A stretch of DNA of 64,000 nucleotides. It comes from an uncultured Pseudomonadota bacterium. Its GTDB lineage: Bacteria; Babelota; Babeliae; Babelales; RVW-14. Below are positions 106-25,900 of this stretch, in pieces. How positions within the stretch are numbered: position 1 is the first letter of the stretch; the number at the start of each line of letters is the position of its first letter. The notes beneath the pieces are model-generated. The model was not told the DNA's origin. It saw nothing but the letters and a program-made list of their open reading frames with translations, and searched no databases. A program made the position numbers and the translations under genes. The stretch spans positions 72,627 to 136,626 of the forward strand of contig CAZHRK010000003.1 of the NCBI GenBank assembly GCA_964534555.1, given 5' to 3'.

Positions 106-128
106 TATAGATGTGTAAACATAAAAAA

Positions 129-158
129 GGCCCCCGGAAATTTCCGGGGGCCTTTTTT
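129..158. terminator. Bidirectional rho-independent terminator between ssb (+) and the giant gene (-)
   Basis: Perfect GC-rich palindrome ggcccccggaaa/tttccgggggcc (129-152), with an A-run upstream and a T-run downstream. Confidence 0.8.
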
Positions 159-162
159 ATGT

Positions 163-3100
163 TTATTGTGTCGCTAGAGTTTTTGCTTGATCTGCAGAAA
201 TCAGTTTTGTTTTCTGTGCAGCATCACTAATGATTTTCTTTAACTCAGCCAGACGTTTTGTATCAACTGTTTTAATTCTTTCTATTGTTTCACTCAGGGC
301 CTTGCTTGCAATAGCCTGAGCATTCGCATCAAGTCCCTTGGCAACAGCCCATGTTGCAAGGCCTTGTGTAGCTTTAATAATATCATCAGCCGTTTGTGCT
401 CGTTTTATCTTGCTAATATTATCTGTTAGCCCTTGCATGATAACAGCAGATGTCGATACGCCTGCAGCTCTGCTTGGTTTTGCCGCACTGGTATCTATTT
501 TAACAACACGGCGGCTTACAGGACGCTGGCTTTGCTCATCAACAACTTTTGGTGCACTGCGTACTGCACTTATTGCTTGTGTTGCACTTGGGCGTGCTAG
601 CGGTTGTATCGCAGCAGTTGTTGAGGTAGCAGTTTCTTTGCTGATTACATTTTTAGTTTGAGCTGTTTTAATAACCTGCATTACAGCGTTTACTTTAGCA
701 AGGTCTCCCTGCTTTAGTTGTTTGCTGAGCGCATTAATACGCGTTTCAATTTGTGCTTTTTCTTCTGGGCTTAATGAGCTTGCATTAGGTGCATTAAGGA
801 GTTTTGTTAATGCATCGATTTCTTCCCATACAGGGTCGGTTGGTTTTTGTGGTGCTTGTTGTGCTGGGCCTGCTTTAGTAATCTCGGCTTTCATAGCTGC
901 TGCTTCACTTGCGCTGAGTGTTCCTGTCGCAACCAGTATGTCAATCGTTGCAAGAAGCTCATCGCGATCGGATGCACTTAATGTTTTTACGCTGCGAATG
1001 GTATCATTTAACGCATCCACAACTTCTTGTTTTTCTTTACCAGCAAGTGGTGCCTTGAGCTTCTGGCCCATTCCTTTTAGCAATTTTATACGACGTGATT
1101 TATTTGTCGTTTTCTTCATTTTGCTAATATTGCCTGGTGTTGGCTCTGTTTCTTCTTCTTTAATTAATCCGCCTGAACGAGGCTGATTGCCGGCTGATAA
1201 ATCATTAATATCAGTATCAGTTAACCCTGCAAGGCCTTTAGTCGTTATTATTTTTTGGCCGCGGGCTTTTTTAATAAGGCCGCCAAGGCGTTTTTTCTCT
1301 TCGATTGTTAGATCAGATTCATCTGCAATAACTGAAGCAAGAAGCTCATCAAGTGCTGCTTGTGTTGCGGCATCTGGTACTTTGCCCCCAAGCTTGTTAA
1401 TAAATGTTTCAAGAGCTGTAAGCTTGTTTTGCGGCGTTGCTGAGTCTTGTGTTTTTTTGATGTTTTCTGCTGTTGGCTCAGATGCTTGGCGTAGCGCTTC
1501 ATTAATCAACGGTGTTACTTTTGATGACAATGATACTTTTTGATCTTTGTTTAAAAGGCCTGTGTTGGTTGCTTTTTGTATGATTTCATTTAGCTCACTA
1601 AGGCTACCAGCATCAGCACCAAGATTGTCTTTAACGATTGTTTCGAGTAAGGTGCTAAAAGATTTTTGCACATCAGCGTCAATTACCCCTGTGCCTGCAC
1701 GTTTAATAAGGTCTTTGATTTTTTGTTTTTTAACAACAGGATCAGTTTCGTTATTAATATCATCAATATCAGCTTGACTAACTTTCGCTGCGGTGCCAGC
1801 TTGGCCAGAAGATTTAGCGCCCTTAGGCTTACCGCCCGTTGCAATCGCTTCATCGAGTGAGGAATCAATATCATCAATAGTTGAAGCTTTACCAGGTGGG
1901 ATGATACCAGTCTTCTTAGCTTTTTTAACGATGTTGCTTAGTGTTTTAATAGTCTCAGGATCCATGTCTTGGCCCTGAGCAGCAAGGTCAGCAAGTGCAT
2001 CTGCAAGTTCGTTTTGTTCCTCAGGAGAGAGGGCGCCGGTAGCGGCTTTATCAACAAGGGCTTGTAGCTTTTTGACCTTGTCTTTAACTGAGCCCTTAGC
2101 GTTTTTGATAGCTTTAATATTGTCTGCGGTTGGCTCAGTAGGAAGCGTATCAATCACATCAGCGTCAGCTTTAGCTTTAGTGATTTTAACTTTGATAGTT
2201 TTATTAACATACTCTTTTTGCGCATCGCTTAGCGCGCCGCTGTCATCAGCGTCTTGTAGAAGCTGCTCAAAAGCAATAAGTTCATCTTTGCTCATCTTAT
2301 CAATGTTTTTAGACATTTTATCGATCTGAGCAGCGATAGCGTTTTTAGTAGCAGCATCAAGATTTTTATCTTTAGCTTTACCGATGATATTTTTCAGAAT
2401 AGCGATTTGCTCTGTTGTTGGTGCAGCATCAGCTTTTTTGACATCGTCCTGAGCTTTTTTGTTTTCAGCAGGGGTGGCAGGAGTTGTCGGTGTTTTACCT
2501 TTAGTGCCAGCTTGGCCAGAAGATTTAGCGCCCTTAGGCTTACCACCTGTTGCAATCGCTTCATCGAGTGAGGAATCAATATCATCAATAGTTGAAGCTT
2601 TACCAGGTGGGATGATACCAGTCTTCTTAGCTTTTTTAACGATGTTGCTTAGTGTTTTAATAGTCTCAGGATCCATGTCTTGGCCCTGAGCAGCAAGGTC
2701 AGCAAGTGCATCTGCAAGTTCGTTTTGTTCCTCAGGAGAGAGGGCGCCGGTAGCGGCTTTATCAACAAGGGCTTGTAGCTTTTTGACCTTGTCTTTAACT
2801 GAGCCCTTAGCGTTTTTGATAGCTTTAATATTGTCTGCGGTTGGCTCAGTAGGAAGCGTATCAATCACATCAGCGTCAGCTTTAGCTTTAGTGATTTTAA
2901 CTTTGATAGTTTTATTAACATACTCTTTTTGCGCATCGCTTAGCGCGCCGCTGTCATCAGCGTCTTGTAGAAGCTGCTCAAAAGCAATAAGTTCATCTTT
3001 GCTCATCTTATCAATGTTTTTAGACATTTTATCGATCTGAGCAGCGATAGCGTTTTTAGTAGCAGCATCAAGATTTTTATCTTTAGCTTTACCGATGATA

Positions 3101-6100
3101 TTTTTCAGAATAGCGATTTGCTCTGTTGTTGGTGCAGCATCAGCTTTTTTGACATCGTCCTGAGCTTTTTTGTTTTCAGCAGGGGTGGCAGGAGTTGTCG
3201 GTGTTTTACCTTTAGTGCCAGCTTGGCCAGAAGATTTAGCGCCCTTAGGCTTACCACCTGTTGCAATCGCTTCATCGAGTGAGGAATCAATATCATCAAT
3301 AGTTGAAGCTTTACCAGGTGGGATGATACCAGTCTTCTTAGCTTTTTTAACGATGTTGCTTAGTGTTTTAATAGTCTCAGGATCCATGTCTTGGCCCTGA
3401 GCAGCAAGGTCAGCAAGTGCATCTGCAAGTTCGTTTTGTTCCTCAGGAGAGAGGGCGCCGGTAGCGGCTTTATCAACAAGGGCTTGTAGCTTTTTGACCT
3501 TGTCTTTAACTGAGCCCTTAGCGTTTTTGATAGCTTTAATATTGTCTGCGGTTGGCTCAGTAGGAAGCGCGGAGATATCTTCTGTTGTTACGCCTTGCTG
3601 CTGTTTACCCTTGCCACCTTTTTTGCCAGGGGAGCTTGCGCTCCCCTTTGCATCTTTAGCCTGGCTTGGTTGTTGTCCGCTATCGTTTGATGGGCTGCTT
3701 ACTTGCGGGCTGCTTTTTTGCTGGTTGGGGTTTTGATTGCTGGACTTTTTTTTTTCGCCCCCTGTTTTGGAGCCCGTCTTTGCTGTTGTTGTGTCTGTTG
3801 GCGTTGTGCTATCAGGAGCTTGCGGTTTGCTTGTGCCTGATGCTGGAGTTGTAGTTTTGCCTTTTGCTGGCTTAGCTTGTTTTTCTTGTTTTTTAGCTGC
3901 TGGCGCAGATGTTTGTTGTCCGCCTGTTGATGCTGGTGCGCTTGATCCTTTGCCTTGTGCTGCTCTTGATGGATCAAGGTCAAGCAAGATACTCTCAATT
4001 TGTTTGCTCATGCTGCCGCCCAAGCTGCTTGTTTGCGCGCTTGAGATGAATCGTATGATCTCTGCTTTGTCGCTTGCGCTTGCTGATTTACCTTTGGCAG
4101 CCATGTCTCTTAATGCTTTGATAAATGCTTCTTGATCAGCTTTGTTTGTTGAAGCTTTTCCTGCAGTACTTGTAAGCAGTGTCATTTGTGACTTGAGATC
4201 GCTTACTTGTAGAGCATTAAATATCTCTCTTTGAATCGAGCTTTCAACGATGCTGATTCCTTGGTCACTCAGCATTTGTTTAACTTGTTGCTGCTGGATT
4301 GCATTAAGAATAGATATGTTGATACATGATCTTAGGAATGTAATTACGCTATCAGAACGTTTAACAGATTTGTCTGAATCACCATACACAGCTTGTACAA
4401 GTTTGAAGAACAATCCGTACGTAATCTCATCAAAGCGCTGAGAATCAGGAATGATACGTACAATATTACGTGCTAATGAAAGTTGCTGATCACCAAATGC
4501 TGCAAGTGCATTTGAAATACGCTTATCAATATCAATAACATCGCCATACTCTGGAATTATCTGTCTTTGTGCTGCGCTGAGCAGTGGGGTGTCTTCAGCT
4601 GAGACGAGCAAAAACTCAAGGTTTGCAACTACATCAAGAGAAGAGCTTGTCAGCGAGTATGCCTCTGTTCGTGTTGCTACGAGTTGTACAACTGCATTAT
4701 AGAACAGTGTTTGCAGGCGATTGCCAACAACAACAATGTCATCAAACTCTGCCATGATATCAAGCATAGCTTCTATGCGCGCGTTGTAATCGCTAAGAGC
4801 AAGTGCTGCAAGGATCATAACTTCAACGCGTACTGTTATTGCCATTGATTTTGCATAATCTTGTTGAGCCTTGCTCAGGAGGGATGACGTGCTTGCAGCA
4901 TCAAGTACATCAAGGAGCGCTCTATTTGTATCAAGGCTTTCTCCTTCGCGAGCATCAAATGTTGCAACAAGTCCATCTCGTGCAAATAAGTTTTGAACTT
5001 CAGCAGAGAACATGACTGTCTTGGTTGCGCTTACCTGTGCAAGCGCAGCAACGTCACTTAAGATCGCGCTGAACTCTTTAAGTCGTGCGTTGTAATCAGA
5101 AATTGCAATAGCAGATCTGATGCGCGCAAGAAACTTAAGTGAGTTAATTTCGCCTTGAACTGTCGGAAGGCTTACAGACGTAATAACGCCTTTAGCTGAT
5201 TCATTTAAAAGTCCTACTTCTGCAGCATCAGCGCTATCAAGTAATGTTACAAGAATACCAAGCTGGTCAACATCTGTTTTGCTTCGTTTTGTATACACTT
5301 GATTGAGTGCAGTGTTGAAAAGACCTTGAATATTTGCAGCAACGCGCGCTGTTCTGAATGTCGTTAAGATGTCGTTCACTTCGCCAAGCTGCGATGTATA
5401 GTCTTTCATCGCTATTACAGCATTAAGTCTTCGTACGAGGCTGAGGTTTGCAAGTTCACCTTCAACCGTTGGTGTGTATGTTGTTCTAACGGCATCTTGT
5501 GATGCTGAATTAAGAAGAGGTGAGGTGCTTGCTGAGCGCAGGAGCTGGAGCAGCGCTGTAAGTTGTTTTTCATTTGTTGATTGGCGGCCAATAAAACAGC
5601 TATTCAGAACACGCATGAGCGCGCTTGATACATCGCCAACTGTTAGATCAAGATTTGACTGTGCGTATTTAATCACAATATTAAGAGCTGAGCTAATACG
5701 CGCATCAATGTTTCCAATTCTCTCAGCTGCTGCAATTTCCGCTAGTGCTGCGAGTGTAAATAACTCTTTATCAATTTGTGTTGTCCATGTTGTCATTGTT
5801 GCTTTTTGTTCAGCAGTAAACAGTGCCTTGCTTTGCGCCTTAGTGATTGTTGCTTTGATTTTTGTTAATCCATCAATCGTTTTTGTTCTGCTGTCGTATT
5901 GCTTTTTAAGCGCCTCAAAAAGGCTATTACGTGTTGCTTCGTCAACTTGGCTTGGGTCAAGGTCAAGAAGATCATCAATGCTTGCAGGGGCTCCATCTGT
6001 TCCTGTTTTGCCCGTGATGGCATCTTGAATGCGGGCTTTATTGATCTCTTTTTGTAATGTTGGAATCCAATCATCACGCATAATGTCATTTACAAAGCGT

Positions 6101-8088
6101 CCACCATCTTGAACAGCTCTTAGTTGGTTGCTTGAAAGCCAGCTTTGAATTAGATCAAGTAAGTTTTGTAGCGCGGCGGTGTTTGATGCGTCTCGACCAT
6201 TGTACATTTTCTTAAGGCCATCCCAGACATTTTTTGCTTGTTCTGCAGTTAGTGTTTGTCCTGCAACAGGGCGCGGGAAGCCATTTGGATTTTTTGGGTC
6301 TGCGCTTGCAATTTTTGTTAAGAGATCAAGTTCGCGTGCAATTTGTGGTAACCATGTGCCAACAATTGTTGCATGGTGTGTTTGAATAAGTTTGCGTGGT
6401 GTTGACCATAATTCCAGAAGTCCACGTAGGCTCGTTAGGCTATCAATTGATAACGAGTTACGTTTGTCATAACGATCTTTGAGTTGGCTGAAAACCATAT
6501 TAGAAAGCGCAACATCAGCAGGATTGTTTTGATCAAGCGCTGGATTAAATGCCGCACCAGGACCTGCATCAATATCTACAGATCCGCTTTTAACAAGCTG
6601 AAGCTTTGCAATTTCTGCATTAACAGTTGGCACCCATGTGCTGTTTATCGTGCTGTTTTGTCCTGAGGTCAGTTTGCCACTACGTGACCAGCTGGTAAGG
6701 TACGCAACAAGATCTTGGAGGAATTTAATTTTTTCATCGTTACCGGTTAGGCCAGCTACTGCAGCTGTTCTACCATTGTAACGTGCTTGTAGCAGCGCGA
6801 AAATTTGGCTTTGAAGTTGTGGCGTAAGAGGGCTTGGGGTATCCTCTGGTGCTATGTCTCCGCCTGCTCCTGTGCCGCTTCCACCTGTTGAAAGGTCATT
6901 AATCTTTTTTTCTAAAATTGTACCAGCAAGACTGTTGAGCCATGATGCAATTGTTGCGCGCTGTGTTTCTGTTAATTTTCCACCAGAGCTATTGTCATAC
7001 CAATTTTTTAGAATGTCTCGCATTGTCTCTAGCTCAGTGATCGCAAGTGTTGAGGCTGTGCTGTAGTAGTTTGACAAGCTTTGCATGATTTGTCCTTGCA
7101 GGCGCGCTTGATGGCTGACTGCTGAGGATTTACCACTGTCGTCAAGGATAGGTGATGTTGTTACAGAGACAACATCAGTGCATGAGCTAAGTTGTGCTGT
7201 GATTGAGGTTGGTACCGTCACAGAGGTTGTTGTAACTGTTGAAATAATTGGATCAATAAGCTGCTTAAGGCGCGCAAGGAAGATTCGCTGTGTTTCGTTT
7301 GGTACTGTAATGGTTGTTCTTAGCCCACCGAGTGCGCTGATTGTTGTTGCGCTTAAAATGCTTGATTCAAGATCAACAATAGCTATAAATGTTGCGAGTT
7401 GTGATTTGTATGAAGAATCAGTTACAAGTGGTGAGTTAGACGCTGTTGTAAAAATAGCTTTTACAGTAGCAAGTGATGTCAGTGTTGGAATTGTTACGGC
7501 GCCAGTCGATGTGCTACTTACTCGTTGTGCAAATACTTTAAGTAAGTTTGTGTAAAATATTTTTTTAATCGCATCTGTAAACGTTACTGTTGTCGTTGTT
7601 GTAAGGTTTCCAGCTTGTTGCAGTAGCAGTCTAATATTGCTGAGCGTTTGAGTCGTGAACCCAGATGTCCCCATGCTAAATATTTTTGTTTCAATAGAAA
7701 GCATGCTATTCATGCTTTTAATAACATTATCATAGCTACTATTGCTCGACATTGTGTCTTTTTGGATAAGAACAGCAATAATACTATTAAGGTTATCTGC
7801 AGCTGTGCTGCCTGAAGCATCACTTTCAGCGTACGCTGTTATACGGTCTGAAAAGAGCTTAGTGATGGCGCTGTAAACGCTTTCGATATCACTTCCTGCT
7901 ATTGTATCGGCAAAAGTGATCGCTTCGTTTACTTGATTCAGCCTGTCTACGTATGAGCTTGCACCCATAGCAGCGGTGATTTGACTACTCAATGATGCTG
8001 CATGCGCAGAGGAGCACCAAAACAGTGCTGCTGTCATCGCGCAGCTTATTAAGGTTTTGATTCCTGTAATACGTTTAAATAGGCTCAT
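163..8088 (-). CDS. Giant secreted alpha-helical repeat protein (about 2,640 aa), function unknown
   Basis: Uninterrupted ORF 163-8118. The ATG at 8088 (MSLFKRITGIKTLISCAMTAALFWCSSAHA...) follows GGAGACGGAGA and gives a classical signal peptide, so I prefer it to the 8118 start. Composition is Ala/Lys/Thr/Asp-rich with several internal repeat families. Confidence 0.85.
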   Translation of the reverse strand: MSLFKRITGIKTLISCAMTAALFWCSSAHAASLSSQITAAMGASSYVDRLNQVNEAITFADTIAGSDIESVYSAITKLFSDRITAYAESDASGSTAADNLNSIIAVLIQKDTMSSNSSYDNVIKSMNSMLSIETKIFSMGTSGFTTQTLSNIRLLLQQAGNLTTTTTVTFTDAIKKIFYTNLLKVFAQRVSSTSTGAVTIPTLTSLATVKAIFTTASNSPLVTDSSYKSQLATFIAIVDLESSILSATTISALGGLRTTITVPNETQRIFLARLKQLIDPIISTVTTTSVTVPTSITAQLSSCTDVVSVTTSPILDDSGKSSAVSHQARLQGQIMQSLSNYYSTASTLAITELETMRDILKNWYDNSSGGKLTETQRATIASWLNSLAGTILEKKINDLSTGGSGTGAGGDIAPEDTPSPLTPQLQSQIFALLQARYNGRTAAVAGLTGNDEKIKFLQDLVAYLTSWSRSGKLTSGQNSTINSTWVPTVNAEIAKLQLVKSGSVDIDAGPGAAFNPALDQNNPADVALSNMVFSQLKDRYDKRNSLSIDSLTSLRGLLELWSTPRKLIQTHHATIVGTWLPQIARELDLLTKIASADPKNPNGFPRPVAGQTLTAEQAKNVWDGLKKMYNGRDASNTAALQNLLDLIQSWLSSNQLRAVQDGGRFVNDIMRDDWIPTLQKEINKARIQDAITGKTGTDGAPASIDDLLDLDPSQVDEATRNSLFEALKKQYDSRTKTIDGLTKIKATITKAQSKALFTAEQKATMTTWTTQIDKELFTLAALAEIAAAERIGNIDARISSALNIVIKYAQSNLDLTVGDVSSALMRVLNSCFIGRQSTNEKQLTALLQLLRSASTSPLLNSASQDAVRTTYTPTVEGELANLSLVRRLNAVIAMKDYTSQLGEVNDILTTFRTARVAANIQGLFNTALNQVYTKRSKTDVDQLGILVTLLDSADAAEVGLLNESAKGVITSVSLPTVQGEINSLKFLARIRSAIAISDYNARLKEFSAILSDVAALAQVSATKTVMFSAEVQNLFARDGLVATFDAREGESLDTNRALLDVLDAASTSSLLSKAQQDYAKSMAITVRVEVMILAALALSDYNARIEAMLDIMAEFDDIVVVGNRLQTLFYNAVVQLVATRTEAYSLTSSSLDVVANLEFLLVSAEDTPLLSAAQRQIIPEYGDVIDIDKRISNALAAFGDQQLSLARNIVRIIPDSQRFDEITYGLFFKLVQAVYGDSDKSVKRSDSVITFLRSCINISILNAIQQQQVKQMLSDQGISIVESSIQREIFNALQVSDLKSQMTLLTSTAGKASTNKADQEAFIKALRDMAAKGKSASASDKAEIIRFISSAQTSSLGGSMSKQIESILLDLDPSRAAQGKGSSAPASTGGQQTSAPAAKKQEKQAKPAKGKTTTPASGTSKPQAPDSTTPTDTTTAKTGSKTGGEKKKSSNQNPNQQKSSPQVSSPSNDSGQQPSQAKDAKGSASSPGKKGGKGKQQQGVTTEDISALPTEPTADNIKAIKNAKGSVKDKVKKLQALVDKAATGALSPEEQNELADALADLAAQGQDMDPETIKTLSNIVKKAKKTGIIPPGKASTIDDIDSSLDEAIATGGKPKGAKSSGQAGTKGKTPTTPATPAENKKAQDDVKKADAAPTTEQIAILKNIIGKAKDKNLDAATKNAIAAQIDKMSKNIDKMSKDELIAFEQLLQDADDSGALSDAQKEYVNKTIKVKITKAKADADVIDTLPTEPTADNIKAIKNAKGSVKDKVKKLQALVDKAATGALSPEEQNELADALADLAAQGQDMDPETIKTLSNIVKKAKKTGIIPPGKASTIDDIDSSLDEAIATGGKPKGAKSSGQAGTKGKTPTTPATPAENKKAQDDVKKADAAPTTEQIAILKNIIGKAKDKNLDAATKNAIAAQIDKMSKNIDKMSKDELIAFEQLLQDADDSGALSDAQKEYVNKTIKVKITKAKADADVIDTLPTEPTADNIKAIKNAKGSVKDKVKKLQALVDKAATGALSPEEQNELADALADLAAQGQDMDPETIKTLSNIVKKAKKTGIIPPGKASTIDDIDSSLDEAIATGGKPKGAKSSGQAGTAAKVSQADIDDINNETDPVVKKQKIKDLIKRAGTGVIDADVQKSFSTLLETIVKDNLGADAGSLSELNEIIQKATNTGLLNKDQKVSLSSKVTPLINEALRQASEPTAENIKKTQDSATPQNKLTALETFINKLGGKVPDAATQAALDELLASVIADESDLTIEEKKRLGGLIKKARGQKIITTKGLAGLTDTDINDLSAGNQPRSGGLIKEEETEPTPGNISKMKKTTNKSRRIKLLKGMGQKLKAPLAGKEKQEVVDALNDTIRSVKTLSASDRDELLATIDILVATGTLSASEAAAMKAEITKAGPAQQAPQKPTDPVWEEIDALTKLLNAPNASSLSPEEKAQIETRINALSKQLKQGDLAKVNAVMQVIKTAQTKNVISKETATSTTAAIQPLARPSATQAISAVRSAPKVVDEQSQRPVSRRVVKIDTSAAKPSRAAGVSTSAVIMQGLTDNISKIKRAQTADDIIKATQGLATWAVAKGLDANAQAIASKALSETIERIKTVDTKRLAELKKIISDAAQKTKLISADQAKTLATQ
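1793..3569 (-). repeat. 2.5 copies of a near-identical 711-bp in-frame tandem repeat (237 aa per unit) inside the giant gene
   Basis: The anchor gtgccagcttggccagaag occurs at 1793 and 2504, an offset of 711. The right boundary ggaagcg ends at 2858 and 3569. Antisense ORFs in the track repeat identically at 711-bp offsets (1683/2394/3105 and 2072/2783/3494). Confidence 0.95.
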
Positions 8089-8225
8089 TCTCCGTCTCCT
8101 CGGGGCTGAAAACGTCATTATTTAAGATCCAATAAATAGTTACAGAGTGTACGCCTTATGATCAAGAGTTATAAAAGCTCATTTGTTGCACACGCGTACA
8201 CGATGACCTACCCTAGACAAAAAGT

Positions 8226-10335: not shown

Positions 10336-11226
10336 TTGAGTATGCAGGATTTTGAAAAGTTGTATGACGCTTCGTTTGTCCAGAAGCTTATTGAGCATTC
10401 TTGCCCACAGTTTACACGCAAAGACGTTATTCCATTGCCCTCAGCTGGTACTGACAATATTTTATACAGGCTTGGCAGTAACTTGCTTATTCGCCTGCCT
10501 GCATATGATTTGATAGCGATTCAGATTCAGAAGGAGGCGCACTGGTTGCCTCAGTTATCAAAAAAATTGCCTGTTCATGTTCCAACGTGTGTTCTCTTAG
10601 TAGAGCCATCGGAGCTTTTCCCTTGTTATTGGTCTGTTTGGGAATGGATTGAAGGCGACACCGCAGAGCTTAAGGACTGCTTAAATAATGTTTCGTTGTA
10701 TGATGGTCTTTTAGTTTTACTTAAGACATTACGATCAGAAGAAGATAAAAGCATTCCACTCTATGGCCAGCATAATGCCTTTAGGGGGCAGCCGCTTAAG
10801 GAGCGTGATCTTAAAGTTCGCGCTGCGCTTGATAAGATAGTCCACTCCATAGATGGTCATAGCGCGCTTAAAATTTGGTCTGATGCGCTGGAGTCTGAGT
10901 GTGGTACAAGTGATCTTAGGTTAATTCATGGCGATCTACATCCGCATAATCTTTTAATTAAAGAGGGTGCGCTTGCGGCTGTTATTGACTGGGGACTTAT
11001 GGGGCGGGGTGACCCCGCGTGTGATCTTATGGCTGCCTGGACATTATTTGATCGTCAGCAACGGATTAATTTAAAAAGAGATTTAGCGGTAAGCGATTCA
11101 GAATGGTTGCGAGCTCGAGGGTGGGCGCTCTCTTTTTCTGTGCTGATTTTAGATTTTTATGGCGGTAAGAATAATTACTTATATGACCTTGGGCTGCATG
11201 TTATGCGCGAGTTATTAAGCGATTGA
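10336..11226 (+). CDS. Aminoglycoside/choline-kinase-type phosphotransferase (APH family)
   Basis: LIHGDLHPHNLLI...VIDWGLMGRGDPACDL contains the HGDxxxxN catalytic loop and the D-x-G metal-binding motif of the APH fold. An alternative ATG is at 10342. Confidence 0.75.
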   Translation: MSMQDFEKLYDASFVQKLIEHSCPQFTRKDVIPLPSAGTDNILYRLGSNLLIRLPAYDLIAIQIQKEAHWLPQLSKKLPVHVPTCVLLVEPSELFPCYWSVWEWIEGDTAELKDCLNNVSLYDGLLVLLKTLRSEEDKSIPLYGQHNAFRGQPLKERDLKVRAALDKIVHSIDGHSALKIWSDALESECGTSDLRLIHGDLHPHNLLIKEGALAAVIDWGLMGRGDPACDLMAAWTLFDRQQRINLKRDLAVSDSEWLRARGWALSFSVLILDFYGGKNNYLYDLGLHVMRELLSD

Positions 11227-11919: not shown

Positions 11920-12405
11920 TTAAGCGTTATTAATTTGTGTCATGTTTTTTCGTGTATAAAGTACGCGTGTGAATTCAGGGTGCTCAATAACTTCTATTGA
12001 TTCCCAGCTAGATGCATCAAATGCGGGAAAAAATACATCACCATCATAATCATGTTTGATATAGCTTATATAAAGCCTGTCTGCTATCGGCAGAAACTGT
12101 TCATACGTATACGCGCCACCAATAATAAAAATGTCTGTTCCATGACTGTATGCTTTATTCAGTGCTTCTTGAGCTGAAGTACAGATCTCAACGCCGCTGA
12201 TAGTAATATTTTCATGACTCAGAACAATATTATGACGGTTGGGAAGCGGGCGTCCAATCGATTGATAGGTTTTAAGACCCATTATGACAGTATGGCCTGT
12301 TGTGAGTGATTTGAAATTTTTTAATTCATCTGGAATGTTCCATGGTAGGTTATTCCCCTTCCCGATGACGCCTTTTGAGGTCATTGCTGTGATGATATAA
12401 ATCAT
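11920..12405 (-). CDS. folA: Dihydrofolate reductase
   Basis: MIYIITAMTSKGVIGKGNNLPWNIPDELKNFKSLTTGHTVIMGLKTYQSIGRPLPNRHNIVLS is the canonical DHFR N-terminus. It overlaps the thyA stop by 4 nt. Confidence 0.9.
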   Translation of the reverse strand: MIYIITAMTSKGVIGKGNNLPWNIPDELKNFKSLTTGHTVIMGLKTYQSIGRPLPNRHNIVLSHENITISGVEICTSAQEALNKAYSHGTDIFIIGGAYTYEQFLPIADRLYISYIKHDYDGDVFFPAFDASSWESIEVIEHPEFTRVLYTRKNMTQINNA

Positions 12406-13268
12406 ACTGCTATCTCAAATTTAATAGTTGGTTGGCTGACGTAATCAATCACTGTTGAATCTTCTGCTTTCCACTCAAAAATAGATGTAAATGGTTCAGT
12501 TACAATGCGAGGGAGCGGGGTGGGGATGCGTTGTATTTGTTCATTTGCCCCTTCTAGGTGATTGATATAAATATGTGCATCAGCTAAAAATCCTATAACT
12601 TTACCCTCTTTGAGGCCAGCTTCTTTTGCAAGCAGATGAAGGAGGAGTGAATAACTTGCAATATTAAAAGGTAATCCGAGCATGATATCAACAGATCGTT
12701 GATTCCATAAAAGATTTAATTTGCTTTCAATCACAGTTAGCTGAAATGCGTAGTGACATGGTGGTAACGCCATCTCATCAAGCGCTAACGGATTCCAAGC
12801 TGATACCAGCATACGCCGACTTGAAGGGTCTGCTTTTAATGTCTGCACAACTTTCTTGAGTTGATCGTACCCTTGATTAATATATTCTTGATCAAACGAG
12901 GTATAGCGCGCTCCAAAATGTCTCCACTGAAAACCATAAATTGGTCCAAGGTCGCGCTCTTCAAGCATTTTTTGCTTCGCCTCTGAGCTGTGGCCATAAG
13001 GAGCTTTTTGTGGGTATGCCCACTCATCCCAGATGTGATTATTTCTTTCTTGAAGCCATTTTTTATCTGTTATTCCTTTGATAAAAAATTCTAGCTCTGA
13101 TGCAACAAGTTTAAAGGGCACTCTTTTTGTTGTGAGCAACGGGAAGCCATTTTCAAGGTCATGCTCAAACATTAACCCAGCAACAGTAAGCGCATCAATA
13201 CTTGTTCTATTGCTTTTGCGTATGCCATAAGCAAGTACATGTCGTACAATATCAAGATATGACTTCAT
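12402..13268 (-). CDS. thyA: Thymidylate synthase (ThyA type)
   Basis: Contains GFPLLTTKRV, DLGPIYGFQWRHFG, and PPCH in LPPCHYAFQ. The ORF extends to a GTG at 13301, but the ATG at 13268 (MKSYLDIV...) matches the usual ThyA N-terminus. Confidence 0.92.
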   Translation of the reverse strand: MKSYLDIVRHVLAYGIRKSNRTSIDALTVAGLMFEHDLENGFPLLTTKRVPFKLVASELEFFIKGITDKKWLQERNNHIWDEWAYPQKAPYGHSSEAKQKMLEERDLGPIYGFQWRHFGARYTSFDQEYINQGYDQLKKVVQTLKADPSSRRMLVSAWNPLALDEMALPPCHYAFQLTVIESKLNLLWNQRSVDIMLGLPFNIASYSLLLHLLAKEAGLKEGKVIGFLADAHIYINHLEGANEQIQRIPTPLPRIVTEPFTSIFEWKAEDSTVIDYVSQPTIKFEIAV

Positions 13269-13385
13269 TGAAAACTCTGTCGCAATAAAGGATTGAAACA
13301 CATTTTACTCTTACTTGTACATTACCATAAAACCACTTGAGCGTAAAAAATTAGCTGCCAGGTATTTCATGTGACAATCTTTTTC

Positions 13386-14654
13386 TCAGCTTAACTCAGG
13401 ATATCCGCATGAGAAGAGTAATGCGCATTCTTTCAGAGCGGTAGTAATTTTTGAAGATTGATAAAGAGTGCGCGCTTTTTCAAATTCAGCTTTTTTTTGA
13501 CTGAGAGCTTCTTCTGAGATAAGACCAGCAAGATATTCTAATCTTTTTTTGTTATATGAGTTTTTATTTTTTAAATAGGTAACTCTTTGTGCTTTCAGAA
13601 AATTTAAGCTTTTCTGAAACTCGTAGTAGTTGTCAGAGACGTTTTGTGCAATCTCAAGCTGAAGTTGTTCGTTTTCTAAGATCTGACGAGTTTTTTCTGC
13701 CTGTGCAGCAAGTTCTTGAAAATAGCTCACAGTGCCATCAAATATATTCCATGATGCCGTGAGCCCAAAGCTATAAGTCCCTTGGTTCTTTTTGAGTTGG
13801 TTTGCCACTGTGGGATAGTGAGAAAATCCAGCATCTGCTTGAGCTGCAATTATTGGTAGACGAGCAGATTGTGTTATTTTTTCACTGAGTTTAAGCGCAT
13901 GTACTTTTTTAATGCTGCTTTTTAAGTCTGGACGGTTTTTAATTGCTTGCTCTTGATACCATGCAAGCGGTTTAATCGTATGCGGCTTTTTTTGTTTCCA
14001 TGTCAGCTTTGTGTTATCAAGTGGCGCTGCAATTAAAAGACTGAGCTTATTGCGCGCAGCTAAATAGTCATGCGCATAATTTTGCACAGAGATAATATCA
14101 TTAGAATAATCACTTATTTGCTCAAGATATGTTTGTTTGTTAATAAGTGAAATTTTTCGTTCTCTTTTTGTTTTGTCATAAGTTATAGCAGCTGATTTTT
14201 TTAGTGCATGGGTAAATGCTTGCTGCTGCTGAATGTCATAGTATTCGAGAAATGATTTTTCAACTGCGAATCTGATGGTGTGCGCTTCTCGCTCACGGTA
14301 CCCCTCTTGGATTTCAGCTTCAGTAGTGCCTCTTTCGTATTTTGTTAGTGGCCCAGCATGCTGGAAAATGAGTTGCTGAGCATGGAGTATTGTCGTATTG
14401 CCAAATGAACTTTCTCCCTTATGTTGAGAGAGGTCGCTTGAAATGCTAACTGTCGGCGCATATGCAACAAGCTCGCTTTTTGCTCGAAACTGAGACGCTT
14501 GAATTCCTGCAGCAACTGCTTTAAGGGATGGTCGATTTACAAGGGCGTTTTGTACCGCCTGGTCTATTGTCAGATTATGTGCATGAGTTTGACTCATAGC
14601 TATTATAAAGATACTTAATAAAAAAAAACTATACGCAAGCGATGTCTTCATCAT
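13386..14654 (-). CDS. TolC-family outer-membrane efflux protein
   Basis: Signal peptide, then LTIDQAVQNALVNRPSLKAVAAGIQASQFRAK, the typical OEP-family opening. 422 aa with two coiled-coil-rich halves. Confidence 0.75.
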   Translation of the reverse strand: MMKTSLAYSFFLLSIFIIAMSQTHAHNLTIDQAVQNALVNRPSLKAVAAGIQASQFRAKSELVAYAPTVSISSDLSQHKGESSFGNTTILHAQQLIFQHAGPLTKYERGTTEAEIQEGYREREAHTIRFAVEKSFLEYYDIQQQQAFTHALKKSAAITYDKTKRERKISLINKQTYLEQISDYSNDIISVQNYAHDYLAARNKLSLLIAAPLDNTKLTWKQKKPHTIKPLAWYQEQAIKNRPDLKSSIKKVHALKLSEKITQSARLPIIAAQADAGFSHYPTVANQLKKNQGTYSFGLTASWNIFDGTVSYFQELAAQAEKTRQILENEQLQLEIAQNVSDNYYEFQKSLNFLKAQRVTYLKNKNSYNKKRLEYLAGLISEEALSQKKAEFEKARTLYQSSKITTALKECALLFSCGYPELS

Positions 14655-14756
14655 GAGATGGGTTCTTTCTTGCTTATTGCCCTAAGTAATTTTGCAGAAT
14701 TATTACAGTACATTAATCACCTTAAGCAAGCAAACCCTTTCTGTCTATAAAGCAAA

Positions 14757-14787
14757 AAGCCTGCGGATATTATTATCCACAGGCTTT
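14757..14787 (-). terminator. Rho-independent terminator downstream of the 14810-16003 gene
   Basis: agcctgcggat-attatt-atccacaggct with one mismatch. On the minus strand the stem is followed by tttttgcttt. Confidence 0.65.
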
Positions 14788-14809
14788 TAAGGTAGTTGCT
14801 TGTACTCTA

Positions 14810-16003
14810 TTAGAACGTTGCAGAGCCAAAGACCCCAAATGCTCCAGCTACTTTGCGCATTGTTGTACCCGCAAGATCGATTCTTTTAGGGTGCATAGTG
14901 CTTATATTAAGAATGAATCCAAACATATCATTCTTAAAATACTTACCGTTTGTTAATGCATCCTGAAAGCCCATGCGTAGTTCGCCATTGAAAATATTTT
15001 GTGGAGCGATTCTAAGTGCATTACCGCGGATTTCTGGCGCCACAACAAGGCCATTAAAGTCAACTCGGTCATTTGCAGCGACTAATGCGCTTAATGTGTC
15101 AATACCGGTAGCTTTTTGTTGGGTGAGTAAATCATATCGAGCTTCAAGGTCGATAAAGAACAATTTATAGCGGTAACCTAGCATTCCGTAACCACCGAGC
15201 TGAAAAAAGTCTCTGCGTTTTGCGATGGTTGGAGTAATTTTGTACTGAGGGTACAGTATCGCAGAAATGGTATCGGATATGAGATTAGCTATGTTTGTTG
15301 AAGCAAAAGGCTCTTCTTTTAGAAAAGAGACATGCATTTTATTCATGCCAAAAAATTCGCGAGCTTGGCCGCCAAAAATTAGATCAAGATTATGTTTTTT
15401 AGTATTAACACATTTGATTTGTAAATCGGCACCAAATCCTGCGCTGTGGGCTCTTTCCCCGGTTGTGCCTTTGTAAATATCTGATTTTCGTATGATTGAT
15501 AGTGTTGAACCATCAAGCTGGCCAAATACATATGGGGTAAGGCGCAGATGATCATTGTCGATTGCAATCCACTCTGTTCCCATAAAGAAAAACGGGAAGA
15601 CCTCATTACGTGATGATGCTTTCATTGTTTCTACAGCTTGTGAATTTTTGCTGTAGACGGCATATCTGTTTATATTGCTGCCAACGCCGACTCTAACACC
15701 CGTCTGCAGAGATAAGCCATCAACTAACCCATAAAGCTTTTGATCATATCTGAAATCAACAGTAGATGCATTAGAGCTAGACGGATCATTATCAAGGCTT
15801 ATTGATGAAAAGCTGCTTATTCTTAGGTTAGCGCCATTTTTACTTTTGCGCTTGAGAGCAAACGTTCTGGAGTGTTCTTCCATTCTCGTTGTCACAGTAT
15901 GAACTGGAATATTGTTAAATGACAAAGAGTGTTCAAAGGCTGAGAGGTTTGAGCCTAAGCAAAAAACAACCCATAAAAAACCAAAAAGAAACATAATAAA
16001 CAT
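14810..16003 (-). CDS. Putative outer-membrane beta-barrel protein
   Basis: N-terminal signal peptide, alternating beta-strand-like pattern with Gly/aromatic richness, and a C-terminal ...GVFGSATF ending in Phe (OMP signature). No named family recognised. Confidence 0.55.
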   Translation of the reverse strand: MFIMFLFGFLWVVFCLGSNLSAFEHSLSFNNIPVHTVTTRMEEHSRTFALKRKSKNGANLRISSFSSISLDNDPSSSNASTVDFRYDQKLYGLVDGLSLQTGVRVGVGSNINRYAVYSKNSQAVETMKASSRNEVFPFFFMGTEWIAIDNDHLRLTPYVFGQLDGSTLSIIRKSDIYKGTTGERAHSAGFGADLQIKCVNTKKHNLDLIFGGQAREFFGMNKMHVSFLKEEPFASTNIANLISDTISAILYPQYKITPTIAKRRDFFQLGGYGMLGYRYKLFFIDLEARYDLLTQQKATGIDTLSALVAANDRVDFNGLVVAPEIRGNALRIAPQNIFNGELRMGFQDALTNGKYFKNDMFGFILNISTMHPKRIDLAGTTMRKVAGAFGVFGSATF

Positions 16004-22942: not shown

Positions 22943-25900
22943 TTAGAACAGGTCTTTTAGCTTAGAAACAAGGCTTTTTGATGCTTTAATTAAAAGATCA
23001 TCTAAATCGTTAACATTTGCTTCGATTCTAATAGAAAAGTCTTTGCCACCAATAACACCTTCAATTATTGATATTGGCATTTTGCCTTGGACAACCGCCT
23101 TAAGGCTTTCAATTTCTATTCGAATTTTATTGATAGTGAAGACGTTTACTGCTCGCAGGCCAAAATCAAGGACTTTTGAGCTTACGCCAGTTGCTTTTTC
23201 TGCTGCATACAAGCTACCTTTTGCCAGCGTTAGAGCCGCGTCAGCTGTTTTTTGTGCTGCTATCAGAGCGGCTAGCTCAGCACGCTCATCAGCTGTTGTT
23301 TTATCAAGGACTTCTTTTTGTACAACCTTGCCTGCAGATTTGCCTGTATCAACCACCGAGTCAACGGCATCTTTGCCTGTATCAACCACTGAATCAAGGG
23401 TGTTTTTGCCTGTATCAACAACAGAGCTACCGATACTTTTTGCTTTATCTACTACTTTATTAAAAACGCCCCATGCATAGAGTTTATGTGGTTTTTGATT
23501 TGTCAAAAGTGTATCTAAATCAAATCGAGCATCAGTATTAGTTGCTATTTTACGTCTGAGTTCTGCTATACGTACGTCAAGCCTATCAAGATCCTTCTGA
23601 GCGCTTTCAACTTTTGATCGAGCGTCTCGAATAGATGCCCCAGCTTGATCAAGCTCACCGCGTATTTGTTTTCTGAAGCGCTCAATAAATGCTGCATCAA
23701 ATCCTGATGCGATTTCTCCTGATAATCTGAAGTCTATATTTTTAACACGCGCTACATCGTCAATACTATCCATTTCAGTTGGAAGGTTGACCGCAGATCC
23801 CTCAAATGTTGCTCTAAAAGGACCAAACAACGTGCGCACGGTTTTGAAGCTAAGCTTGTCCCCGCTAAAGAAAAGATCTGTTTGGCTTACAGATCCCAGA
23901 AGTTCTGCAAGCCCAGTGAAGGTGATGATTTGTCTGTCTTTGGTTAGTGTTAGTTCAAATGCTGCGCCATCATCATCTGTTCCGTATTTTTGATCAAGCC
24001 CCGCGCCGGTTAATTTGAGAGGCCCAATATCTATTTTCGGAATTGTTCCATTCATACTAAAGCCGCTGTCACTTACAACTATTTGTGCTTTACCATCTCC
24101 CACAAATGGCAGTGCAACAAGAGCATTCATTCTTAATCCAGGCGCAAGCACTGGTTTCTTTAATGATGTACCTTTGAGCCCAACAGTAAATTCAGCTGCT
24201 TTAATCCCCATGTTCGGTAATCTTAACGTTGGCATATCAAGGCCCGATTTTGTGGCAAATGCAATTACATCTTTAAGCGTTAGTCTCTCCGCGCGCATTG
24301 ATGTGTAGAGCAGAAAGCCTTCTTTGCTTAGTTTTACATCTGTTTGGCTTGAAACTCCAAATAGCTGTACCAACCCAGACATAAGAAAGCGTTGTTCTTC
24401 TTTTGTTAATTTAATATCAACAATCGCTCCATCATCAGCTGTTCCATATGCGCCGTCTTCTCCCATGCCTGTTATAAGCACTGGGCCGCACTCTATTTTG
24501 CTTAATTTACCTTTTGCGCTAATTCCATTATCGCGCACGAGTAGTTCTACAAGAGCAAATTCATCAAGCACCTGGACTTTACCTTTCATGGTAATCCCAG
24601 GATCGAGTCTGAAGGTTTTGAATTTTTCACCCTTCATACCAACGGTGTATTCAACATCGCTTAATCCAAGGTCGGGTAGTGCATCAGGTGGTAGCGTGAG
24701 TCCTGTTTTGTTTGCAGCAGCAATAATGTCTTTTAAATTAATGCGATCAATTTTGAGCGATGATAAGAATTCAAAGCCTTCTTTTCCTAGGTACACTTCT
24801 GTTTGTGCTGAGCTTCCAAATATTTTAATTAACCCCGAAATTAAGACATGCTGCTTTGTTGGCGTAAGCGCAAAACTAACAACTGGTCCATCATCAGGTG
24901 TGCCGTATGTTTTATCTAACCCTTTTCCTGTTATCAGTACTGGGCCTAGCTCTAGTTGGGATATTGTGCCCTCTGCTATTATGCCGCCTATATCAACATT
25001 AACGTTAATAGTTGCTTTTTCATCAAGTACTTCCATAGAGCCTTTGAACGTTAGGCCTGGGTCGAATTGAATCTCTCCAATCGATCCACCAGTTGGTGCA
25101 AATTTTACTTCAACATCATGAAAGCCAAAGTTTGGAACTTTTTCTATTGCGATATTTGCGCCTGCGCTTCTTGCAAGGCTTGCAAGGTCAGATAAGAAAA
25201 GTCGGTTGATACTGCCATACATAATCAGGTCTTGAAGATTTGCAGTGACCAGCGTTCCTACGCGTGCTTTGATATCACCTACTTGTACAGCGCCAGTAAG
25301 ACCGAATTTAGTCGGTAAACCAGTAGCAGAGAAGACCGCGTAGTCTATACCAGCTTCTACCGCCACATCAGATATAGCAAAGCCTTTGATGCCCATAGGG
25401 TTGTGCCAATCTCCCTTCATTGTGCCTGAGAGCGATGCGCTATCTGGCTCAACTTTTACTCGGCCATAGAGTCCCAGGGGCTCGTCTTTATCAGATGGGA
25501 TAACAGTGATTTTTGTTATGAGAGAGAGCTTCGGGCCACTTCCGTCAAATTCAAAAATGAGGTTATCAAGTGTTGCCTTTTTACCCAGGCGTACTTGCGC
25601 AGGGATATTTGCTTGAAGCTTAAGGTCTCTGATGCTCCTGCCAACCGACATAACGGTATAAACTTCTTTAGGTGCATCAGGGACTAAATTGCTTACACCA
25701 GCAAAGACACCACCGGTTGTAGGCATTTTTAGGACAATTGAGACGCCCTGAGGGATATCAATTTTTAATGCTGGGTCGGTGTAGGCTTTTGATGCAGCGA
25801 TGATACTTGCGCGTGAGAAGTCGATTTTATCAATATCTGTTCCTGCTGCATCAGGAATAGAGTCAGATACTTTCCAGCCAGCTTTAATACCGCCCTTAAG

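Follow-up and report, generated by a model that had tools for sequence, protein, structure and literature searches.

Size variation by recombination between intragenic repeats is a property of the streptococcal M protein and of the alpha C protein. The Periscope Proteins, among them SasG, Rib, and Sgo_0707, are surface proteins of variable length that carry highly identical tandem domain repeats (PMC8201768, PMC9704523). Homologous recombination is the accepted mechanism for the length variation of proteins built from highly identical tandem repeats (PMC9704523). In this study, we analysed a 64,000-nucleotide stretch of the contig CAZHRK010000003.1 (positions 72,627 to 136,626, assembly GCA_964534555.1), hereafter called the window, in which a giant gene contains a tandem array of 711-bp units. 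The pattern is familiar from length-variable giant repeat proteins. We conclude that the array is probably a real and recent in-frame amplification, situated in the variable region of a conserved family of exported proteins. The protein matches of the window assign the organism to Candidatus Dependentiae (TM6/Babeliales). Only three members of this phylum have been cultured and, to our knowledge, few surface or host-interaction proteins are known in it.

To delimit the array, the window was compared with a copy of itself shifted by 711 nt. The identity was 100% over positions 1793-2858 except at positions 1834 and 1837, and outside these limits it dropped at once to the background level of 10-50% per 30 nt. 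With 1064 of 1066 positions matching against a background of approximately 25-30%, the identity cannot be due to chance. The periodic region is a direct repeat with a period of 711 that extends over 1793-3569, i.e., 1777 nt or 2.50 units, exactly as described in the initial annotation of this DNA, which was made from the sequence alone. The same annotation named a single difference between the units, and the comparison revealed no other: positions 1831-1839 read accgcccgt, while positions 2542-2550 and 3253-3261 read accacctgt. Very recent expansion or ongoing conversion, the two origins suggested initially, is the only reasonable reading of such identity together with the sharp edges. No second repeat of 80 nt or more occurs in the window. 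Tandem Repeats Finder was silent on it, as the maximum period of this program is 500.

Since 711 equals 3 x 237, the unit preserves the reading frame and amounts to 237 codons. The peptides annotated for each unit, from LPTEPTADNIKAIKNAKGSVKDK to KAKADADVIDT, are present in the translation. Both variant positions are silent on the coding strand, where they give ACG/ACA (Thr) and GGC/GGT (Gly). It should be noted that the gene carrying the array lies on the minus strand, which corrects the initial annotation. In protein order, the units occupy approximately positions 2859-3569, then 2148-2858, and then the partial unit 1793-2147. The array corresponds to amino acids (aa) 1517-2109 in the numbering of the open reading frame (ORF), with the modules arranged as A-B-A-B-A, and the copy with both variants is the last one. 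Promoter-like and terminator-like matches within the units were considered and rejected, as they occurred at the chance frequency and simply recurred with each unit.

Nearly the whole giant protein is made of one module of approximately 95 residues, which is present in 22 copies that are 9-27% identical to each other. This agrees with the initial statement that the remaining gene contains only strongly diverged versions of the repeated module. The module was defined by an iterated profile and then by a 17-sequence alignment (A1), and an hmmsearch with the A1 profile gave the coordinates listed in the table below. One repeat unit consists of modules A and B plus linkers. The C-terminal half of the protein is basic and contains ten modules with short low-complexity linkers between them, and linkers equivalent to the one that joins the two halves are visible in the relatives P0002 and P0009. 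The last module is conserved across the orthologues and carries a conserved Trp.

The AlphaFold model of a single module contained five helices, with a predicted local distance difference test (pLDDT) score of 88.5 and a predicted template modelling (pTM) score of 0.79. Each module is thus predicted to be a five-helix bundle. The three-module model had a pLDDT of 83, and its linker segment stayed below 50. The linkers between the modules are rich in K, P, T, and G, have a length of 12-45 residues, and are predicted to be flexible. A sequence profile search of the PDB returned only designed helical repeats (E ~2e-4), which were taken to reflect composition or generic similarity.

The longest ORF of the window spans 163-8118 on the minus strand and has 2651 codons, 10 more than the likely start of translation gives. 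The sequence AGGAGA lies 6 nt upstream of the second ATG (8088), and a start at this codon gives 2641 aa, the same as in the database copy P0001. The second ATG is therefore the likely translation start. The N-terminal signal peptide shows a basic n-region, a hydrophobic core, and an AHA|A cleavage site. No other part of the protein is strongly hydrophobic, and both findings support the initial annotation of a giant secreted protein. All full-length relatives also start with a segment resembling a signal peptide, and from these sequence features we infer that the protein is exported by Sec. A lipoprotein signal (LISC) was ruled out, as the hydrophobic stretch that such a signal requires is interrupted by charged residues and the core runs beyond the Cys to the AHA|A site. 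Type I secretion, considered because of a TolC-like gene approximately 5 kb away, was also rejected in view of the conserved N-terminal signal peptide and the lack of RTX repeats. No LPXTG-type C-terminus is present in the translation. The Pfam and NCBIfam scans of the giant protein gave nothing above the threshold and no domain of any kind; neither FIVAR (PF07554) nor GA (PF01468) was listed in the Pfam scan at E <= 1, and the only related Pfam match was a weak FIMAH with an E of 0.059, under its cut-off.

The giant protein had at first looked like an orphan, since a word-indexed search with the whole protein and with the core alignment returned only the query. This status was rejected when a profile search found relatives, and the candidate list of the word-indexed search appears to have been swamped by low-complexity words. 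For the profile search, the A1 profile was run against all 1.84 billion cluster representatives. It matched 128 proteins at E <= 1e-3, 23 of them at E <= 1e-30. Ten giants of 2,436-4,728 residues, with 22-30 modules each, are among the matches; for the relatives overall, 21-30 modules were counted. A blastp comparison of the giant protein with P0002 was colinear, with 30% identity over 998 aa (E 2e-78), and the core alignment of ten proteins (A2) covers approximately 320 residues with a mean column identity of 45%. The family members that carry a name are hypothetical proteins from metagenome-assembled genomes (MAGs) of Candidatus Dependentiae or Babeliales. Lysine-rich tails are present in several relatives. 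No Pfam domains other than the MIR domains of P0008 were found in the scanned members, and a literature search returned no description of such a giant helical-module family in Dependentiae. On the basis of these sequence comparisons, the gene belongs to an undescribed family of giant module proteins that has no Pfam model. In P0008 (4728 aa), the MIR region is located at approximately aa 770-839, before most of the helical modules; apart from the module itself, no other domain was recognised in the family.

The gene order around the giant gene is shared between the window and the contigs of P0009 and P0007: Peptidase_M16, GT9, thymidylate synthase, a 221-aa ORF, nitroreductase, the giant gene, and ssb. 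In the P0009 contig, lpxB follows next after ssb. The P0004 contig has the same order including lpxB, without the nitroreductase gene. The positional orthologues of the giant gene are thus found in the loci L161 (P0009), L162 (P0004), and L163/L164 (P0007). The genes of P0003 and P0005 are located elsewhere and not in the slot of the window gene.

High-identity internal arrays are common in the family. The C-terminal modules were compared in five giants, namely the window protein, P0009, P0002, P0007, and P0004. Each amplified C-terminal module had its nearest counterpart within its own protein, whereas its identity to the modules of other genomes was only 25-35%. This comparison with relatives, proposed as a check by the initial annotation, fits a very recent expansion or ongoing conversion. 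The identity between modules within one protein was 100% in the window protein, 96-99% in P0009, 80-92% in P0002, and 50-67% in P0007. Meanwhile, P0004 contains no recent module copies. At the DNA level, the P0009 array (L161 14052-17204) consists of nine modules of two interleaved types with an identity of 95-100%, and one pair of its modules is identical over the 300 nt compared. Judged from the sequences, a conserved frame made of the N-terminal half and the last module encloses a region that expands repeatedly in each lineage, and the array of the window is the youngest example seen in the family.

A difference of one unit between closely related genes was seen at another place in the family, and it gives the probably polymorphic copy number of the initial annotation indirect support only. 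The 90%-identity cluster of P0005 contains a member that is exactly one 91-residue unit shorter. The loci L166 (P0130) and L167 (P0005), which come from different assemblies (samples ERZ28564009 and ERZ27254744), differ by one 273-bp unit and a single-nucleotide polymorphism (SNP) over 8.6 kb. The shorter gene lies on a k141 MEGAHIT contig, and the adjacent units share an exact stretch of 178 nt; a collapse during assembly is thus as possible an explanation as real polymorphism.

The near-identity of the units, the sharp edges, and the kept frame of the window array point to unequal homologous recombination or replication slippage between the units, by which the array would have arisen and would change in size. 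Each event would add or remove 237 residues, i.e., two helical bundles, and leave the frame intact. The non-integer copy number with non-homologous flanks would imply at least two events. In one possible route, the array first grew to three units, and an in-frame deletion then spanned its distal end. Alternatively, an amplification over an older A-B-A layout may have been followed by conversion.

Two other explanations of the array have to be weighed against recent amplification. The number of 2.5 units in the assembly is provisional, as it may be an artefact of an assembler that traversed the 711-bp loop wrongly, in which case the true array would have 1.5 or at least 3.5 units. The units 2504-3214 and 3215-3569 show no differences, and short reads and ordinary read pairs are unable to count units whose interior is identical over 711 bp. 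The one-unit difference between the two assemblies of the P0005 homologue, at a place where the exact stretch of 178 nt exceeds the k-mer, is in keeping with such an error. We nevertheless consider a wrong copy number unlikely. The linked variants at 1834 and 1837, near the edge at 1793, mark one copy of module A and thereby indicate at least two distinct copies of this module, that is, at least 1.5 units. Plain graph traversal normally gives the minimal 1.5 units, and a path of 2.5 units in a 155-kb contig would suggest spanning evidence. Moreover, the relatives examined carry multi-copy arrays in the corresponding region. It is quite improbable that, instead of a recent duplication, old duplicates have been held identical by gene conversion (concerted evolution). 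The non-integer A-B-A-B-A layout would be expected from the homogenisation of an older A-B-A layout, the two differences, the only ones present, are found at 41-44 nt from the edge of the array, at a place where a conversion tract would be expected to stop, and in the orthologue P0009 the interleaved A and B copies show a mosaic identity of 95-100%. However, at both edges of the window array the identity passes from 100% to the background over a few bases and no shoulder of diverged sequence is seen, and there are zero differences in 1,022 of the remaining compared positions.

The role of the protein is a separate matter. If located outside the cytoplasm, the giant protein would form a long and flexible chain of helical modules, and lineages would differ in the length of this chain and in how many binding surfaces it offers. 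The ends are conserved, the array turns over fast, the linkers are predicted to be flexible, several relatives have lysine-rich tails, and one relative has MIR domains. Together, these traits suggest an exported, elongated, and multivalent protein at the surface or the host interface, and we tentatively regard it as possible that the protein is a surface or host-contact structure of a protist parasite. The main alternative is a structural protein of the periplasm or the envelope in which the repeats tune a structural dimension. The protein has a Sec signal peptide alone, and nothing was recognised in it that would lead across the outer membrane; the conserved neighbourhood is also rich in envelope genes, with a GT9 heptosyltransferase gene and an OEP/TolC-like gene in the window, as well as LpxB and CDP-alcohol phosphatidyltransferase genes downstream in the syntenic loci. 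Rapid lineage-specific turnover of the array is, however, typical of exposed proteins and not of housekeeping envelope parts, one family member contains MIR ligand-binding domains, and the gene is absent from one syntenic MAG, so this alternative has only a minor chance in our judgement. A tandem-repeat effector delivered into the host cell, like the TRP proteins of Ehrlichia, is very improbable. Dependentiae are obligate intracellular parasites of protists with a large share of proteins with signal peptides, many of which are candidate effectors (PMC6561590), and the lysine-rich tails of several relatives would be compatible with this. Nevertheless, the positional orthologue shares a conserved N-terminal half of 1,300 residues, unlike fast-evolving effectors. 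Despite a TolC-like gene in the vicinity, neither Pfam/NCBIfam nor a reading of the C-terminus detected RTX repeats or a type I signal in the protein, whose signal is of the Sec type.

Several results weigh against a recent amplification in a conserved family of exported proteins. An exact search of metagenome contigs and genome contigs for the unit junction gave no match elsewhere, and a protein-guided scan of metagenome contigs found neither a second copy of the locus nor a close relative; no second assembly and no reads of the locus were found in the collections searched, which is also a point in favour of a copy-number artefact. No relative was confirmed when species-representative genomes were scanned with the whole protein or with an alignment of the core from four sequences (A3). 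In the syntenic MAG L001, there is no giant gene adjoining the nitroreductase gene. Together with the empty scans, this means either a patchy distribution of the family or a low sensitivity of the pattern scan. In the ten-sequence alignment, no stretch was sufficiently conserved for a pattern scan. The ratio of nonsynonymous to synonymous polymorphism (pN/pS) between the copies in the P0009 array was ~0.3-0.9, and up to ~1.5 in one pair, calculated from very few sites, which indicates weak constraint at most. The giant protein showed no recognisable surface anchor, outer-membrane barrel, or signal for a secretion system. The Foldseek searches, with the three-module and single-module models against the PDB and with the module against BFVD, gave no module match with E < 0.1; the matches were designed helical repeats and CID and TPR-like bundles only, with no ligand indicated.

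The coordinates of the giant gene, its array, and its modules, as well as of its immediate flanks, are given in Table 1.

Table 1. Features of the giant gene and its flanks in the window (positions counted from the first nucleotide of the window).
Feature	Position	Strand	Details and basis
Perfect 20-bp G+C-rich hairpin	118..163	.	Between the stop codons of the giant gene and the convergent ssb
Giant-protein coding sequence	163..8088	-	2641 aa, ~280 kDa, isoelectric point (pI) 8.8; ORF list and translation
Five diverged C-terminal modules	166..1764	-	aa 2119-2651; module coordinates
Tandem array	1793..3569	-	2.5 units of 711 bp, aa 1517-2109; self-comparison
Module A copy 3, bearing both variant bases	1822..2115	-	aa 2002-2099; A1 profile hmmsearch
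Two inter-unit differences	1834 G vs A, 1837 C vs T (+ strand letters)	-	Synonymous; 41-44 nt from the array edge
Module B copy 2	2149..2442	-	aa 1893-1990; A1 profile hmmsearch
Module A copy 2	2533..2826	-	aa 1765-1862; A1 profile hmmsearch
Module B copy 1	2860..3153	-	aa 1656-1753; A1 profile hmmsearch, 72.5 bits
Module A copy 1	3244..3537	-	aa 1528-1625; A1 profile hmmsearch, 71 bits
Low-complexity linker, 131 aa, S/T/P/K/Q/G-rich, pI 10.1	3571..3963	-	Between the conserved and the variable halves
Acidic N-terminal half, pI 5.3, 12 modules	3964..7998	-	Module coordinates; includes the core colinear with relatives, aa 430-1385
Sec-type signal peptide MSLFKRITGIKTLISCAMTAALFWCSSAHA, predicted cleavage before AS	7999..8088	-	Read from the translation
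Shine-Dalgarno-like AGGAGA (8095-8100) and probable ATG (8086-8088)	8086..8100	-	Read in the sequence

The hairpin next to the giant gene is probably a bidirectional terminator. The neighbouring ssb is convergent with the giant gene, and its product ends in ...EAPFEDDLPF* at positions 1-105.

The window is a part of a bacterial chromosome with a G+C content of ~41%, and the housekeeping genes argS, lepA, secD, murD, hldE, thyA, and folA are located in it. The LepA protein is up to 84% identical to proteins of two MAGs labelled 'bacterium', which are followed by the Babeliales/Dependentiae/TM6 MAGs with an identity of up to 82%. An ankyrin-repeat gene at 51281-52978 (plus strand) is typical of Dependentiae genomes.

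The slot of the thymidylate synthase gene is filled differently in the syntenic loci. The window (11920-13301), L161 (5638-6962), and L001 carry thyA and folA at this place, while L162 (7238-8008) and L163 (4128-4871) carry thyX (PF02511), so that two unrelated thymidylate synthase systems have been exchanged in place. The best matches of ThyA are those of L001 (76%) and L002 (73%), apparently from the same phylum. The next matches, with an identity of 64-71%, come mostly from MAGs of Patescibacteria and of the DPANN type, and these matches beyond its own phylum suggest horizontal transfer. Two further parts of the region are either present or absent among the otherwise syntenic loci, namely the aph-like kinase gene (10336-11226) and the TolC-like gene with a 397-aa ORF that has no Pfam match (13386-16003).

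A second large ORF of 1536 aa is located at 22943-27553 on the minus strand. It has no Pfam/NCBIfam match, is unrelated to the module family, and contains a 33-bp tandem repeat at 23339-23426. An ATP-dependent DNA ligase gene of the dnl1 type (TIGR00574, E 4e-109) lies at 36873-38657 on the plus strand, 19 nt downstream of a 221-aa ORF (36189-36854), and a tRNA-Met gene is found at 36069-36145.

As a feature, the array is of an ordinary kind, namely a tandem amplification of young age that keeps the frame of a giant exported repeat protein. It is located in an undescribed helical-module family of an under-studied phylum: a conserved yet unannotated family of giant exported proteins in Dependentiae, whose modules show signs of being gained and lost rapidly in a lineage-specific manner. 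Of all numbers in the contig, the length of the giant gene deserves the least trust. An exposed protein would be a candidate for host attachment or recognition, and it would also be a handy marker for strain typing. The A1 module profile would permit the definition of a Pfam-type family.

The resemblance to the Periscope Proteins concerns several properties. In both cases, the tandem units are longer than 50 residues and nearly 100% identical at the DNA level (here 237 aa or 711 bp, 1064/1066), each unit encodes foldable domains (here according to the AlphaFold prediction), relatives differ in the number of units, and homologous recombination is the proposed mechanism. On the other hand, no cell-wall or outer-membrane anchor was recognised in the giant protein. 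The Periscope Proteins form rigid interdomain rods, whereas the modules described here are all-helical and their low-complexity linkers are predicted to be flexible (linker pLDDT <50). In addition, the host phylum consists of intracellular parasites of protists, and the array is known from one assembly of the locus.

The staphylococcal Embp and Ebh (PMC7587433) are likewise giant exported proteins with dozens of helical-bundle modules, and their repeat unit consists of two helical bundles, as predicted here for A and B, which is a resemblance only. These proteins are composed of FIVAR/GA domains, none of which matched in the giant protein, and there is no evidence of homology. They also belong to Gram-positive bacteria with their own anchoring, whereas the modules in the window protein have five helices and disordered linkers between them. 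The M protein and the alpha C protein are similar in that the in-frame gain and loss of near-identical units alters the protein length. They differ in having short coiled-coil or small-domain units and in belonging to Gram-positive pathogens under antibody pressure, compared with the unit of 237 residues found here.

The type I-secreted RTX adhesins (PMC7493085) are giant proteins of Gram-negative bacteria with an extender of highly similar tandem domains, in the form of near-identical BIg repeats. Their repeats are calcium-stiffened beta-sandwiches, and they possess a C-terminal RTX/type I secretion system (T1SS) signal and no Sec signal peptide. The giant protein, in contrast, has helical modules, an N-terminal Sec signal, and a C-terminus that is itself a helical module, with no RTX or Hemolysin-type Pfam match. 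It is rather doubtful, though conceivable from these comparisons, that the undescribed Sec-exported all-helical family, with its conserved N-terminal half and last module and its fast-changing C-terminal array, provides a part of Dependentiae with a flexible counterpart of Periscope/Embp proteins that acts as a main host-contact structure. As a resemblance rather than an established membership, the closest concept for the giant protein is the Periscope Protein class, and its closest individual counterparts would be Embp and Ebh.

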